21,671 nucleotides of DNA, taken from Thermoproteota archaeon (GTDB lineage Archaea > Korarchaeota > Korarchaeia > Korarchaeales > Korarchaeaceae). A model generated the notes under the pieces. That model saw only the letters and a list, made by a program, of their open reading frames with translations, had not been told where the DNA came from and ran no database searches. Position numbers and translations under genes: made by a program. Each line of letters begins with the position of its first letter. Position 1 is the stretch's first letter. The DNA lies in contig JAOZFG010000027.1 of assembly GCA_027491435.1 (NCBI GenBank), positions 1 to 21,671 of the forward strand, read 5' to 3'. This document shows positions 414-21,124 of the stretch, one piece after another.

Positions 414-1279
414 AGGTCCTGATGTTTGGTGACCCGGACAACCTGCCCAGCCTGGCGGGGGCGTTTCAGGGAGAAGAGGTTCACGCCATAACTTATGAGC
501 AGGTTAACGTGCCCGTCTCAAAGCTAATCGTGGTGGACCCGGCCCCCGAGGGAGTTGAGTGGTGGGCTCACCTGATAAACGGCCTGTTGGACAGCTACGA
601 CCTGTTCGTCACGCCCTTCACTAGGGACGGGTCCGACCTCGCTTCGAGGATAGCTGCCAGGAGGATGTGGCCCTTACTTACCAACGTGATCGGCCTAAAG
701 TTGGGAAACCCTCTTAAAGTGGAGAAGGTCATATTCGGTGGTAAGGGCAAGCAGTCCTTCAGGGTTGAGTTGCCTGCAGTCATCTCATTGTATTCACAAG
801 CCATGGAACCTGTGTCCGGCCAACCAGGAGTTGTGGAGAGGATTAGCAGGCCGAACTACTCACCGAAAGCCAAAGTCCTTGAGAGGAAGAGTAAGGAGGC
901 CGAAGTAGACCTGTCCAAGGCGGAGGTGGTGGTAGCCGTGGGCAGGGGGCTGAAGAGGAAGGAGGACTTGGAGATGATAAGGGAGTTAGCTCAGATCCTA
1001 GGAGGGGAGGTAGCCTGTACTAGGCCCCTGTCCGCTGACTTGAAGTGGCTTCCTGAGGAGAGACACGTTGGCATGACTGGCGTCAGGGTCAAGCCTAAGC
1101 TATACATAGCCCTGGGCATATCGGGGCAGATACAACACGTGGTGGGCTTCAGAGATGCCGGCACCGTTATATCGGTGAACATCGATCCGGACGCCCCGAT
1201 ATTCGAGGTTAGCGACTACGGGGCCGTGGCCGACCTCTATGAGGTGGTTCCCCTGCTGATAAAGGAGCTGAAGGGGTGA
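410..1279 (+). CDS. fixB: Electron transfer flavoprotein alpha subunit (FixB/EtfA)
   Basis: FAD-domain motifs DLSKAEVVVAVGRG, VGMTGVRVKPKLYIALGISGQIQHVVG and VNIDPDAPIF. Confidence 0.95.
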   Translation: MKVLMFGDPDNLPSLAGAFQGEEVHAITYEQVNVPVSKLIVVDPAPEGVEWWAHLINGLLDSYDLFVTPFTRDGSDLASRIAARRMWPLLTNVIGLKLGNPLKVEKVIFGGKGKQSFRVELPAVISLYSQAMEPVSGQPGVVERISRPNYSPKAKVLERKSKEAEVDLSKAEVVVAVGRGLKRKEDLEMIRELAQILGGEVACTRPLSADLKWLPEERHVGMTGVRVKPKLYIALGISGQIQHVVGFRDAGTVISVNIDPDAPIFEVSDYGAVADLYEVVPLLIKELKG

Positions 1280-18579: not shown

Positions 18580-19460
18580 GTTATCACCCCAAGCTTCTCC
18601 CTCAACCTGCAAAAGGCGCATACCCTTCCCGAAGTAGGGTAGCCACACCTCTCACATAGATTAACCTTTCTCTCGGGAGGGGCCGCCCTCCTTGCCAGCT
18701 CCCTGACGCTGGTCACCAGGTTGACCAGGGAGCTGGGCCACCTCTCCCTAATCTGATTGAGTAAAGGCTTTATGAAGGCCTGCTTATCCCTTCCCTCGTG
18801 CGGACACTTCGTGTTACAGCTCCTGAGTCCCATCAGCCTGACGTAGTTAAGGGAGTCCATGTCGCTCACCCAGAAGAGGGGCTTCACCTTGCCTGCCATC
18901 CTGTACTCGGGCATCGGAGGGGTGACCGAGTCGAACTGGTGGTAAAGGTACTGGAGGGAGTGTGTGATCAGGTTGTTCAGGGCAAAGTAGGCCATGTCAT
19001 CCAGGTTGTGGCCTGTAGCCACGTAATCGTAGCCGTTCTCCACGGCGTACCTGTTTAGCAGGTACCTGGTAACGACCCCACAGACTACGCAAGCTAGATA
19101 GGGGTTCTCCCTGGGTATTCTGATCCCCCAATCCTCCACGTTTATCAGGATCCTCTCAACTCCTAGGTCCTGGGTTACCTGATCGAAAACCTCTCTACAC
19201 TCCTCTGACACGGGGGAGTATATCATGGCGGCCCCCACCTTCAGGTTGAACTCTTCGGCAAGCGTGTGAACTGAGTGGAGGGCCGCTATAGAGTCCTTCC
19301 CCCCGGAGACCCCTACCAGTATGGAGCTACCTCTTCTAACCCTCCTGAGAACCCTCCTCACCCTCTTGAGGAAGTACCTCTTGAAGTGCTCGTCACAGAC
19401 GTACCCCCCTAAATTTTGGACGAAAATAGTCCCTGGCCTTCGGCAGTAGATGCACCGCAT
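18576..19460 (-). CDS. ttuA: TtuA/Ncs6/TtcA-family tRNA 2-thiolation PP-loop ATPase
   Basis: N-terminal CxxC..CxxH, SGGKDS PP-loop, central CVVC, GHNLDD, CPH, and C-terminal CERC..CAFC zinc finger. Confidence 0.85.
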   Translation of the reverse strand: MRCIYCRRPGTIFVQNLGGYVCDEHFKRYFLKRVRRVLRRVRRGSSILVGVSGGKDSIAALHSVHTLAEEFNLKVGAAMIYSPVSEECREVFDQVTQDLGVERILINVEDWGIRIPRENPYLACVVCGVVTRYLLNRYAVENGYDYVATGHNLDDMAYFALNNLITHSLQYLYHQFDSVTPPMPEYRMAGKVKPLFWVSDMDSLNYVRLMGLRSCNTKCPHEGRDKQAFIKPLLNQIRERWPSSLVNLVTSVRELARRAAPPERKVNLCERCGYPTSGRVCAFCRLREKLGVIT

Positions 19461-19480
19461 ATGACAGGTTGGGGGTAATC

Positions 19481-19490
19481 ATTTATAATT
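19481..19490. promoter_or_regulatory. Near-palindromic TATA box, probably shared by the divergent ttuA operon and tRNA-Trp
   Basis: ATTTATAATT lies in a 57-bp intergenic gap, 21-30 bp upstream of the ttuA ATG (-) and about 28-37 bp upstream of the tRNA 5' end (+). Confidence 0.6.
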
Positions 19491-19517
19491 GAGTTGACCC
19501 CCTCCTTTAATGACAGT

Positions 19518-19653
19518 GGGGCCGTGGCCCAGCCAGGTGACCCCCCGATGATAGAGGGGTAAGCCCTGGAAAGGAAGGGCGGCGGGCTCCAGTCATTGGA
19601 GCACTGAGGGGGAAACCCGTAGGGCGTGGGTTCAAATCCCACCGGCCCCACCA
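19518..19653 (+). tRNA. trnW: tRNA-Trp(CCA) with two introns (19535-19571 at D-loop 17/17a; 19593-19614 at 37/38) and an encoded 3' CCA
   Basis: Acceptor GGGGCCG/CGGCCCC, D stem GCCC/GGGC, anticodon arm GCGGG-CTCCAG^A-CCCGT, T arm GTGGG-TTCAAAT-CCCAC. Removing 37 + 22 nt gives a canonical 77-nt cloverleaf, and both junctions fold into BHB-type motifs. Confidence 0.95.
19541..19612 (+). ncRNA. Putative box C/D guide for Cm34 of tRNA-Trp, split between the two introns
   Basis: Intron 1 carries CCCCCC + G + ATGATAG (box C-like, 19548-19554). Intron 2 carries TTGGAGCA + CTGA (box D, 19604-19607) + GGGGG. The D+5 rule points to C34. Confidence 0.72.
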
Positions 19654-19684
19654 CTTTTGTGGGGGATCCCAGACGAAGATAGCA

Positions 19685-21124
19685 GTGCTCCGATCCGAGT
19701 CCGATGCGGTCAGGGAGTCAGTAAGGTATGTCCTAGACTCCCTTGGCATCTTCTGGGAGGAGGTATCCGAGCCCGACCCGCTCAAGCACACCGTAGCCTT
19801 AATTCCTGAAGGCTCCCCCCTGGTGCCCATCCCAGTTCCAAGCGTCTTCATAGGCAGGGCCGCCTTAGCCTACTTTGGGGGGGAGAAGAAGACCAAGGTG
19901 GGGTCCCCTCCTGAGCCTTCCGGCTTCATAACCATATCTGGGGAGAGGGCCCCAGTTTACGGGCAGCTATACTCCTTCGAAGGCGACAGGATAGTGGGCT
20001 ACGCTCCCGTGTGGGTTAGGGATAGGCACGTCCTCATAGGCTATGACCTCTTCGAGACGGTCAGCTACTTCATTAGGGGGGCTGAGCAAAGCCTGGGGTT
20101 GAGGGACGTCATAGACAGGAGGGGCCGCTTCGACCCCAAAGCCCTGGAGGAGCTTAGAGGGGTTCCCCCGTCGGTGCCCCTGGTGAAGCTACACTCAGAC
20201 TTGGTATTGGCTTCCCTAGCTTTACTCCATAAGAGGGAGGGCCTTCCCTTTCTAACAAAGCTCTACGGGAGGACTCCAGCTAACCTAACGGTGTCCCTCC
20301 TAATCCCTGTGAGGTTCATAAGGAGAGAGGGAAAGTTCAAAAGGGTTGTGAGCAAGCTGCTGGGGAAGAACACGCCACCGTGGTACGAGAACCTAGCCTC
20401 TCTAAGCGACCCCCTGGCCTTTTACTTCGGGAGCTTCCTAGATTACGATCTTAACTCCATGGAGGGGGAGCTCAGGTCCATAGAGGAGAACGGGCATGAG
20501 GTGGGATTGCTAGCATCCATAAGATCCTCTGTCGACTTCTCCAAGATGAGGGACGAGTACACCCTCATATCGGAGATACTAAGGAGGGGCTCCCTTGGCA
20601 TCAGGTTTCCTGTGATAGCAACCTATCTCAAGGACGCGTGGCGCTCCGCCGCTTCAGTTAACGCCAGGTATTCGGTGGCTGGCGAGCTTTCAGGGGGGTT
20701 TGGCTATCCCCTGGGCCTGAATTACCCGAGCAGGCCCTACGGACTCGTTTGGAACCTGCCCCTAACTTCGAGGGTCAGGTCCCCTGAGGCGGCTAGGGGC
20801 GTAGTGAGGAAGCTCCTGAAGTACGGGGGCATGGTTGCGGTGGAGGCCTACACGGAGGATGCGGCAATAGCCTTCATTAGCGCGGCTAAAGACAGCATGG
20901 CGGAAGTAGACACGCCACTAGAGCTGCTCAAGAGGTGGGAGCGCATAAAGTGGGTCAAGGGAGACTTCGTGTACGACAGGAGGTTCCTCTACATGAAGTT
21001 CAGGGCCTCAGATGCCGTGGAAGACATGGGGGTAAGGGTAATCCACCCGTCGGGCAAGCACAAAATAGTTAGGATCTCCCTGTCCAAGGGGGAGGAGAGG
21101 GAACATGCTGTTGAGGTGGTCTGA
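19685..21124 (+). CDS. Hypothetical protein, degenerate polysaccharide deacetylase (NodB-like) fold
   Basis: YDLFETVSYF..DRRGRF N-terminal module, then LAFYF, NGHEVGLL, GIRF and GYPLGLNYPSRP, which resemble CE4-like proteins of glycosylation loci. Confidence 0.6.
   Translation: MLRSESDAVRESVRYVLDSLGIFWEEVSEPDPLKHTVALIPEGSPLVPIPVPSVFIGRAALAYFGGEKKTKVGSPPEPSGFITISGERAPVYGQLYSFEGDRIVGYAPVWVRDRHVLIGYDLFETVSYFIRGAEQSLGLRDVIDRRGRFDPKALEELRGVPPSVPLVKLHSDLVLASLALLHKREGLPFLTKLYGRTPANLTVSLLIPVRFIRREGKFKRVVSKLLGKNTPPWYENLASLSDPLAFYFGSFLDYDLNSMEGELRSIEENGHEVGLLASIRSSVDFSKMRDEYTLISEILRRGSLGIRFPVIATYLKDAWRSAASVNARYSVAGELSGGFGYPLGLNYPSRPYGLVWNLPLTSRVRSPEAARGVVRKLLKYGGMVAVEAYTEDAAIAFISAAKDSMAEVDTPLELLKRWERIKWVKGDFVYDRRFLYMKFRASDAVEDMGVRVIHPSGKHKIVRISLSKGEEREHAVEVV

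Follow-up and report, generated by a model that had tools for sequence, protein, structure and literature searches.

The guide for Cm34 in the tRNA-Trp intron is the textbook functional tRNA intron, and the primary papers on this one-intron guide may, reportedly, already discuss a competition between the splice motif (BHB) and the guide. Cm34 has been reported in the tRNA-Trp of S. acidocaldarius, H. volcanii and T. kodakarensis (PMC7668247), and in Euryarchaeota it is described as being guided by the Trp intron (PMC4090602, PMC11408192). The euryarchaeal guides, represented by the 103-nt intron of Haloferax volcanii and by sR50 of Pyrococcus, concern the same tRNA and the same target (the ribose of C34) as the locus presented in this study, and they resemble it, as far as the accessible accounts go, in lying in the tRNA's own intron upstream of box D, in following the N+5 rule and in acting on the precursor, as we propose here (PMC4090602, PMC7994747, PMC11408192). 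According to the same accounts, boxes C, D', C' and D are contained there in one 37/38 intron with two guides (for C34 and U39), and reviews describe an action in trans. In the Korarchaeia investigated here, by contrast, the candidate boxes C and D, 52 nt from each other, belong to two different introns separated by exon 2; a single guide is present without C'/D', box C is reduced to RUGAU, guide and target form a hairpin of 7 bp closed by a 3-nt loop, and one G run serves both the kink-turn stem and the splice motif. Neither a complete guide within a single 37/38 intron nor a second guide for position 39, as known from sR50 and H. volcanii, was observed. In all the described cases covered by the accounts available to this study the guide is self-contained in one intron, and no report of a split guide was found in the literature searched, with the primary one-intron papers outside its coverage. 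Judging from the sequence comparisons below, the pre-tRNA-Trp of these organisms probably carries a box C/D guide for Cm34 that is split over two introns and would work only before splicing.

The window, that is, the whole stretch of DNA that was analysed, comprises 21,671 nt of the forward strand of contig JAOZFG010000027.1 (GCA_027491435.1) from a Thermoproteota archaeon of the Korarchaeia, and all features given below lie on this strand. Reading by hand disclosed a tRNA-Trp(CCA) gene with two introns at 19518..19653, the CCA being encoded at 19651-53. A TATA-box-like element, TTTATAAT, is situated about 30 nt 5' of the gene (19482..19489) and a T run directly follows the CCA (19655-58); recognized from sequence only, they are a putative archaeal promoter and terminator of the gene. 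The BHB scan placed exon 1 (tRNA positions 1-17, with the acceptor 5' strand, the D-stem 5' strand and A14-C17) at 19518..19534 and, together with in-silico splicing, exon 2 (A17a to G37, with C34 at 19589) at 19572..19592 and exon 3 (A38 to A73) at 19615..19650. The unspliced gene of the window was missed by ARAGORN and by Rfam at the gathering score; with both introns removed in silico, ARAGORN called a tRNA-Trp(cca) of 77 nt in 26/26 relatives, including the window gene. This two-intron architecture was noticed in one Korarchaeia family, where 33 of the 36 genomes carry it and 28 versions of the gene are distinct. The covariation alignment consists of 26 distinct relatives, and two further versions (L148 and L149) were inspected besides.

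The first intron (37 nt, 19535..19571) interrupts the D loop at position 17/18 and is delimited by the best BHB there, in which the central helix pairs 19529-32 with 19566-69, the bulges are 19533-35 and 19570-72, and the inner helix pairs 19536-38 with 19563-65. Its limits, which were absent from the initial annotation of this DNA, are set here at 19535-19571. In the alignment the central helix of this BHB-1 is 100% paired, with C-G replaced by U-A in 5/26 sequences, the inner helix is likewise 100% paired, with pairs of the types C-G, U-G and G-C, and RNAalifold recovers the same seven pairs. A candidate helix of CCAGG (19533-37) with CCUGG (19565-69) was rejected, as it is possible only with A at that D-loop position, where the majority has U. 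The second intron (22 nt, 19593..19614) occupies the canonical 37/38 position and possesses the best BHB in an exhaustive scan. As the initial annotation had described, G19609-12 pairs 4/4 with C32-U33-C34-C35 (19587-90) in its central helix, and the bulges are A19591, G19592 and U19593 on one strand and A19613, A19614 and A19615 on the other (19591-93 and 19613-15), cut before U19593 and before A19615; the outer helix is the 5-bp anticodon stem and the inner helix has only 1 bp. Both introns display the BHB core of two 3-nt bulges on opposite strands, a 4-bp helix and a cut after the second base of the bulge. The strict hBHBh' form, described as requiring 2 bp or more in the helix on either flank (PMC7714728), is not reached by either, the inner helix of intron 2 and the outer helix of intron 1 having 1 bp each.

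The core of BHB-1 (19529-32/19566-69) does not overlap the C run at 19542-46, and the two BHBs are compatible with each other, the fold that competes with them being a third structure. Multi-intron pre-tRNAs presented with tRNAscan-SE 2.0 (10.1101/614032) likewise have a processing order set by alternative pairings; in the cases described there, close introns disrupt each other's BHB, whereas the Korarchaeia BHBs coexist and their competitor is a third fold which likely has a function of its own.

The elements of this third fold are distributed over both introns. Intron 1 carries the C run (19542..19546), which would be the 5' strand of a kink-turn C-stem and pairs 5/5 with G19608-12, a pairing that the first reading of the sequence had already recognized, and a box C-like AUGAU identified in the alignment (19548..19552). 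Intron 2 carries the candidate guide UUGGAGC with a spacer A (19596..19603, from sequence and alignment), which pairs with G31-G37 (19586-92), followed by a box D, CUGA, seen in the alignment (19604..19607), and by the G run (19608..19612), the putative 3' strand of the C-stem, of which 19609-12 also serve the central helix of BHB-2 according to the BHB scan and the alignment. The terminal stem of the C/D fold thereby has 5 bp (19542-46:19608-12) next to a 3-nt bulge, G19547-A19548-U19549 (19547-49), and a tandem sheared G-A core is possible between G19550 A19551 and G19606 A19607. G19599, the fifth nucleotide upstream of box D, pairs with C34 (C19589), in a register that is identical in 28/28 distinct sequences. 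The hairpin of G19586-G19592 with U19596-C19602 around the loop UCA, as first described, consists of 6 Watson-Crick pairs and 1 G-U pair in the window; this is below the nine continuous pairs that were applied as a limit of credibility to Pyrobaculum guides, as described in PMC6009581.

Among the 26 aligned relatives, the U-G-A of box C is invariant (26/26), its first position is A or G, and U5 is found in 25/26. The full RUGAUGA is not attained, since only RUGAU is present and positions 6-7 are AG, UG, AU or AA, never GA. The GA of box D is invariant as well (26/26), the relatives displaying CUGA, AUGA, UUGA, UCGA or UAGA, and the GA of both boxes is also kept in L148 and L149. The guide core GGAGC is invariant (26/26), with pairs 74-79/91-96 conserved and the G37 pair variable. 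Two other readings of box C were discarded: CCGAUGA (19545-51) is not conserved in relatives, and a self-contained K-loop in the intron-1 hairpin (GA 19547-48 with GA 19554-55) belongs to the window's own sequence only. Inspection of 19553-19603 by eye revealed no GAUGA-/CUGA-like pair at the expected spacing, hence no C'/D' motif, and in the split guide the target itself lies where C' would be expected. A D' guide for position 39 was sought and not found, there being no conserved complementarity to A38-U43 beside a D'-like box. The G run of intron 1 alone could pair with C39-C41, with flanks that are not conserved. Moreover, genes for fibrillarin, Nop5 and L7Ae are present in the genome (PF01269, 299.5 bits; PF01798, 219.2 bits; PF01248, 103 bits), the PF01269 and PF01798 genes being adjacent on one contig (C10).

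With these elements, the proposed guide would combine box C (RUGAU) and the C-rich strand of the D-loop intron with the antisense guide, box D (NUGA) and the G-rich strand of the anticodon-loop intron. In the fold for methylation, the C strand would pair with the G strand, and the two GA dinucleotides would create a kink-turn recognized by L7Ae, to which Nop5-fibrillarin would be recruited; pairing of the guide in cis with G31-G37 would make C34, the fifth nucleotide from box D, the site of Cm34. In the fold for splicing, the C strand would instead turn back inside intron 1, the G run and C32-C35 would build BHB-2, and both introns would then be cut by the splicing endonuclease, which in this genome is a two-domain enzyme of 367 aa. 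The G run is needed by BHB-2 and by the inter-intron stem, C32-C35 by BHB-2 and by the guide, and the C run by the intron-1 hairpin and by the stem, so the two folds, which share three strands, exclude each other and the guide could act on the unspliced precursor only. Their mutual exclusion had been proposed for this gene from its sequence, and we observed that the competing pairings are kept across all 28 distinct gene versions. A split C/D guide must work before either intron leaves, and to this extent the methylate-then-splice order suggested earlier follows from the architecture, provided that the guide works; the strict form, in which intron 1 enforces a checkpoint, was not supported, as discussed below.

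Conservation carries this case, since the motif is unconvincing as a single sequence: the relaxed kink-turn geometry is common in the genome, with 82 matches against 48 in reversed-sequence controls, and is thus frequent by chance. Candidate stand-alone C/D RNAs of the genome share the stem-N-RU-GA...CUGA-stem geometry. Rfam at E up to 10 gave chance-level local matches only (sR58 at 19544-58 and sR3 at 19596-609, both E=7.3), and scanning the own genome with TGGAG-NN-NTGA gave 76 matches, including the gene itself, none with RTGATGA within 70 nt upstream, which is a weak negative. The chance frequency of the motif and the lack of a significant Rfam match, with a degenerate box C, absent C'/D' and a short guide, speak for a reading in which there is no guide: the conserved strands would be ordinary structure of two BHB introns in a GC-rich thermophile tRNA, and their resemblance to a C/D guide would stem from other constraints, such as a pairing of intron and anticodon that shields the anticodon loop or aids recognition by the endonuclease. 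C-rich and G-rich strands pair almost automatically, and since the C and G strands are each held by another helix, part of their complementarity comes free. This explanation is nevertheless unlikely in our view, because RUGAU, GGAGCA and the GA of box D are not needed by the BHBs and yet show little or no variation, in contrast to the intron columns beside them; the majority fraction is 0.987 in the guide columns against 0.67-0.76 in other intron columns. The kink-turn geometry, with 5 pyrimidines, 3 nt and GA in intron 1 facing GA and 5 complementary purines in intron 2, is likewise kept in 28/28, with its spacings of 3 nt and 0 nt; the C run sits exactly 3 nt 5' of the GA of box C in every sequence. 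Again, the N+5 position falls on C34, the Cm site known from tRNA-Trp in the account of PMC7668247.

The inter-intron helix itself is paired 5/5 in all 28 distinct sequences and in 100% of the cells of the 26 aligned relatives, with one pair changed from C-G to U-A in 4 sequences and three pairs showing C to U opposite G, while a control in which the 3' partner was slid by 1-3 columns left 37-60% paired over the whole tested structure. In alignment A1, CCCCC:GGGGG becomes CCUCC:GGAGG in a lineage with a long second intron (4 distinct sequences). That lineage splits the roles of the G run: a GGAGG adjoins box D on its 3' side, and the 3' end of the intron bears another element, GGAG or AGAG; the latter serves the BHB, so GGAGG is not needed for splicing there, and its covariation with CCUCC speaks against the reading without a guide. 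The guide duplex of the same lineage is 8-10 bp long and extends into the first bases of intron 2, and as it crosses the junction of exon 2 and intron 2, its substrate there would be the unspliced precursor. Elsewhere, L149 displays CUCCC:GGGAG against CUCCC:GGGGG in its relative L148, a G-to-A change that also betters the U33 pair of BHB-2.

The kink-turn signature is the best-conserved part of the structure, and the features for accurate methylation, namely a second motif and a long guide, are missing, as they would be if the inter-intron kink-turn bound L7Ae only to hold the introns together, or to order folding and cutting at heat, with no methylation involved. We regard this as very unlikely, since it leaves unexplained the invariant antisense stretch, the location of C34 at N+5 in all 28 sequences and the lengthening to 8-10 bp. 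Engineered single-site or C/D-free guides, as described by Hardin and Batey 2006 and by Wang, Yang and Ye 2022, indicate that one kink-turn or plain stems support methylation by Nop5-fibrillarin in vitro, and the single-site C/D particle is described as active but unspecific in vitro (PMC1635284). Those guides are synthetic, and the loss of specificity with a single site counts against an accurate natural half-guide, unless the hairpin formed in cis takes over the part of the ruler.

Turning from conservation to folding, the split guide has to compete with structures that hold the same strands. Folding of apical segments showed that the C run is sequestered in an apical hairpin of intron 1 (19540..19560), in which A19540-C19544 pair with G19556-U19560 (19540-44:19556-60) and AUGAU (19548-52) lies in the loop, in agreement with the internal hairpin described at the outset. 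Of 20 distinct apical segments, 19 have 4-5 of the five C-strand bases engaged within intron 1, against 2 of 5 in L021, and leave 3-5 of the five RUGAU bases unpaired; the stems vary by lineage (CCCCC/GGGGG, CCCCUAU/AUAGGGG, GGCCUC/GAGGUC and UCCUC/GAGGA). Because it crosses both the anticodon stem and the helices of BHB-1, the inter-intron stem has a pseudoknot topology. With energies obtained from nested constraints, in which that of the inter-intron stem excludes the folded tRNA body, this stem with the guide hairpin is more stable at 85 C than the double-BHB fold in 28/28 sequences, the margin being 0.8-11.0 kcal/mol, and it is the minimum-free-energy fold in 19/28 when the acceptor stem is fixed at this temperature. 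Furthermore, the unconstrained minimum-free-energy fold of the window RNA contains the helix of the C run with the G run at 60 and 75 C.

These energies, and the G run common to the BHB-2 central helix and the inter-intron stem, agree with the strict checkpoint of the initial annotation, by which intron 1 holds intron 2 unspliceable until C34 is methylated or intron 1 is cut, and intermediates lacking intron 1 alone should dominate. We nonetheless consider such a checkpoint improbable. Calculated over 37-85 C, the guide hairpin and BHB-2 are isoenergetic when the anticodon stem is kept, with median differences of +0.8, +0.4 and +0.1 kcal/mol at 37, 75 and 85 C, and the same differences were obtained after in-silico deletion of intron 1, so the lock attributed to intron 1 finds no expression in the folding models. 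Nor does removal of intron 1 release intron 2 in the ensemble calculations: in its absence the median pair probability of BHB-2 is still 0.01, against 0.68 for the guide, absolute ensemble numbers that are weak given an anticodon stem probability of only 0.06 at 80 C in the intron-2-deleted RNA. The equal energies and the deletion results place the main competitor of BHB-2 within exon 2 and intron 2. In addition, the BHB-1 core is clear of the C run, and with L7Ae on the kink-turn the G run may stay bound even after intron 1 is cut; release by completed methylation has no visible basis either, as no element in the sequence would sense the methyl group. The proposed lock is also absent from the long-intron lineage, whose BHB-2 strand is distinct from the kink-turn stem.

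A wider extension of the split guide, which we put forward tentatively and hold to be rather less probable than the guide itself, is a two-state RNA switch. Here the inter-intron kink-turn guide would stand on one side and splicing on the other, L7Ae and the endonuclease would select opposite folds, and wobble methylation and splicing would be kinetically coupled; in the long-intron lineage, with its separate splice strand, an intronic target mimic, UCCAGAG, may park the guide in the splicing fold.

Two outgroup genomes, G025 and G029, were found to lack the D-loop intron and to carry one intron of 54-56 nt at 37/38 with GAUGA motifs of its own, while short-intron members of the family, including the window, have an intron 2 of 20-22 nt without GAUGA. 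The outgroup D loops without intron read AGCCTGGTA and AGCCAGGTA, the latter being identical to the D loop that splicing would give in most family members (AGCC+AGGTA). The single intron of G025 carries the same guide; no convincing box D was recognized in this intron and no convincing terminal stem in that of G029. With anticodon-to-T-loop patterns, no Trp gene was found in G023, G027, G028, G030 and G031. Outgroup matches to the 5'-end pattern turned out to be tRNA-Pro genes and not Trp, and the partial matches taken up as outgroup Trp genes were other tRNAs. Synteny with the downstream ORF of 479 aa is not kept in the outgroups.

If the split guide is real, the D-loop intron gains a function, and the joint retention of both introns in 33 of the 36 genomes of the family, as against a single longer intron in two outgroups, would be explained. 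The locus would also represent a natural half-guide with a cis hairpin substrate, suited to studies of how one kink-turn can achieve site-specific methylation. Since guide hairpin and splice motif are nearly equal in stability in 28 sequences, the tRNA-Trp precursor of this family may offer a simple system for the choice made by proteins between RNA folds at heat.

A tRNA-Trp(CCA) gene with two introns was located at 19518-19653 on the forward strand by sequence reading and an exhaustive scan for bulge-helix-bulge (BHB) splice motifs. Exon 1 (19518-34) is followed by intron 1 (19535-71; 37 nt, in the D loop between positions 17 and 17a), exon 2 (19572-92), intron 2 (19593-614; 22 nt, at the canonical 37/38 site) and exon 3 (19615-50), after which CCA is encoded; judged on sequence alone, 19482-89 is TATA-like (TTTATAAT) and 19655-58 is a T run. 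Neither ARAGORN nor Rfam detected the gene, because the two introns interrupt it, and in-silico removal of both introns led ARAGORN to call tRNA-Trp(cca) in each of 26 relatives, a set that excluded two in which the gene has a third intron. This third intron occupies the T loop of the same gene (L058:74-255 and L082:91-254, both minus strand; genes of 182 and 164 nt), and that of L058 holds GUGAUGA. Two mechanical ORFs of 81 and 114 aa, antisense to the gene (19409-19851, minus strand), are most likely non-genes.

The splice motif of intron 1 (BHB-1) comprises a central helix of CCAG 19529-32 with CUGG 19566-69, bulges CC^A and AA^A, and an inner helix of GGU 19536-38 with GCC 19563-65. This motif is supported by covariation: its central pair C13-G becomes U-A in 5 of 26 sequences, its third inner pair varies among C-G, U-G and G-C with every cell of the 26-sequence alignment paired, and RNAalifold yielded the same seven pairs. 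In the motif of intron 2 (BHB-2), C32-C35 (19587-90) pair with G19609-12 between bulges AG^U and AA^A, the outer helix being the anticodon stem and the inner helix 1 bp only. In both introns one flanking helix measures just 1 bp, a length that strict hBHBh' enzymes are said to reject; an endonuclease ORF with two PF01974 domains lies at G000:C10:54938-55756 (loci L102 and L103) in the window's own genome.

A competing fold joins the two introns. Intron 1 carries a box C-like AUGAU (19548-52) and intron 2 a box D, CUGA (19604-07), directly 5' of which UUGGAGC and a spacer A form a guide that pairs with G31-G37 in a hairpin with a 3-nt loop, so that G19599, the fifth base from box D, is the partner of C34. 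The intron-1 C run (C19542-46), three bases 5' of the GA of AUGAU, pairs with the intron-2 G run (G19608-12), directly 3' of the GA of CUGA. As read from the sequence, the predicted arrangement of stem, 3-nt bulge and tandem G-A pairs is the box C/D kink-turn geometry, which also occurs in candidate stand-alone C/D RNAs of this genome. A regex scan for such RNAs with a terminal stem yielded just 12 candidates, among them C5:184126-184175, C10:36838-36888 on the minus strand and C31:8741-8789, while reversed controls yielded 4. For a thermophilic archaeon this is a small number, unless the boxes are degenerate. Within intron 1, an apical hairpin (19540-44 with 19556-60) engages the C run and leaves AUGAU in its loop; it covaries, with stems differing by lineage, and pairs four or five of the five C-strand bases in 19 of 20 distinct apical segments (two of five in L021). 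The initial annotation had described these folds as sharing strands, and the pairings are present as claimed: the G run is common to BHB-2 and the inter-intron stem, C32-C35 to BHB-2 and the guide, and the C run to the inter-intron stem and the intron-1 hairpin.

A whole-genome DNA search recovered the two-intron gene from 22 relatives, with identities of 71-90%. When one genome of each prokaryote species was scanned with a sequence pattern, 67 loci matched, 30 of them this gene, from Candidatus Korarchaeum sp. or from Thermoproteota, Crenarchaeota and Nitrososphaerota archaeon MAGs; the other 37 were non-tRNA (36 bacterial and one Hadarchaeota). The guide and box D pattern was present in 31 of 40 genomes searched class-wide, and a looser pattern added G045 and G047, giving 33 of the 36 genomes of the window's Korarchaeia family (f1), its own included. 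These pattern searches did not find the two-intron gene in the family members G018 (70% complete), G048 (71%) and G023 (91%), nor in any of the 7 genomes of families f2-f5. In G045 and G047 (L148:~820-955, plus strand, and L149, minus strand), the tRNA-Trp genes have no encoded CCA, and a 5' AGGACCG or UGGACCG stands opposite CGGUCCC-A, hence position 1 is mismatched with C72.

In one sequence alone, the motif is no more than chance would give: a relaxed version (RUGAU-NN followed 35-80 nt later by NUGA, the stem being 4 bp or longer) had 82 matches in the window's genome against 48 in reversed controls. Across relatives it exceeds chance. The inter-intron stem was paired in 100% of cells among 26 distinct sequences, against 37-60% when the partners were slid by 1-3 columns, the structure being tested as a whole; the GA is invariant in box C and in box D of the aligned relatives, and the majority fraction was 0.987 in guide columns against 0.67-0.76 in intron columns outside the proposed elements. 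Between L149 (CUCCC:GGGAG) and L148 (CUCCC:GGGGG), the change also improves the U33 pair of BHB-2 and therefore does not discriminate between the two helices. In a long-intron lineage (L023, L054, L078 and L081; intron 2 of 34-47 nt), a compensatory change has made the C run CCUCC and the bases after box D GGAGG. Here the BHB-2 strand is a separate GGAG or AGAG at the intron 3' end, so splicing leaves the box-D-adjacent GGAGG unexplained. The guide duplex of this lineage is 8-10 bp, extending into the first intron-2 bases; while the BHB holds the anticodon, the guide can instead pair with a UCCAGAG further downstream (UCCGGA in L078).

Among 28 distinct gene versions, with the acceptor stem alone fixed, the inter-intron stem plus guide hairpin was more stable than both BHBs plus anticodon stem in 25 at 37 C, 27 at 75 C and all 28 at 85 C, by roughly 0.8-11.0 kcal/mol at 85 C under nearest-neighbour rules for naked RNA, and was the minimum-free-energy fold in 19 of 28 at 85 C. 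For the window RNA at 85 C, the rough values were -16.6 for the free fold, -13.9 with the inter-intron stem and -10.7 with both BHBs, and at 60 and 75 C the helix of C run and G run was in the unconstrained optimum. The inter-intron stem would cross both the anticodon stem and the helices of BHB-1, so the energies compared for it across the 28 versions are those of RNA in which just the acceptor stem of the tRNA body was imposed. When the anticodon stem was kept, guide hairpin and BHB-2 were isoenergetic (median difference +0.8 kcal/mol at 37 C, +0.4 at 75 C and +0.1 at 85 C).

The initial annotation had further proposed a methylate-then-splice checkpoint: intron 2 would stay blocked by intron 1 until methylation had occurred or intron 1 itself had been removed. 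If the guide is real, the shared-strand architecture implies this order; in the long-intron lineage it is also implied by the guide duplex, which spans the exon-intron junction. The strict checkpoint is not supported. In ensemble and constrained folding, BHB-2 is opposed by the guide hairpin, independently of intron 1, and deleting intron 1 left the median differences given above unchanged. The 80 C ensemble medians were 0.54 for the inter-intron stem, 0.68 for the guide and 0.00 for BHB-2 (guide 0.68 and BHB-2 0.01 after intron-1 deletion), their absolute values being untrustworthy since the same model gave the anticodon stem just 0.06 in intron-2-deleted RNA. Moreover, the BHB-1 core and the C run do not overlap, no element senses the methyl group, and the lock of a shared G run is absent from the long-intron lineage.

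The outgroup tRNA-Trp genes of G025 and G029 have no D-loop intron (D loops AGCCTGGTA and AGCCAGGTA, the latter matching exactly the D loop that most f1 members have after splicing, AGCC+AGGTA); each has a single longer intron of 54-56 nt with internal GAUGA motifs, and that of G025 (L154, minus strand, from locus position 1501; 56 nt) has the same guide, CUCUGGAGC. The split arrangement therefore looks derived within family f1. The L154 intron contains CUGA and GGGAUGA, set 9 nt apart as a K-loop-like D'/C' pair, together with the guide CUCUGGAGC, 3' of which no box D could be recognised; the initial hexamer of the intron, AGCCCC, is complementary to the acceptor-stem 5' end.

Judged from the pairings and their conservation, the two introns most likely form jointly one split box C/D-type guide for Cm34. 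Genes for fibrillarin and Nop5 stand next to each other in the genome, which also encodes L7Ae and a splicing endonuclease, the latter as one 367-aa ORF with two catalytic-type domains. In tRNA-Trp, Cm34 has been reported from S. acidocaldarius, H. volcanii and T. kodakarensis and is believed to guard against the reading of UGA (PMC7668247), and in Euryarchaeota a box C/D RNA inside the single Trp intron is reported to guide Cm34 and Um39 (PMC4090602, PMC7994747, PMC11408192). The proposed Korarchaeia guide would work like this known one, with the precursor before splicing as its substrate. Action in cis is the simplest assumption, since at high temperature 6-7 bp could hardly keep a trans duplex together; the choice of the methylation fold would fall to L7Ae and that of the splicing fold to the endonuclease. 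Against the guide reading, box C is shortened to RUGAU, no C'/D' motif was found between the two boxes, and, compared with a canonical C/D sRNA, the guide length and a single contiguous RNA are also missing; the pairing falls short of the nine pairs applied to Pyrobaculum guides (PMC6009581), and a single-site C/D particle is reported as unspecific in vitro (PMC1635284). The putative topology, with its crossing helices, is a further worry; set against it, engineered guides free of C/D motifs and one-arm guides are described as working in vitro (PMC9670817). In the literature that we searched, which did not extend to the primary one-intron papers, no guide divided between two introns is described. 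The proposed split guide is of real interest to specialists, and is directly testable in vitro.
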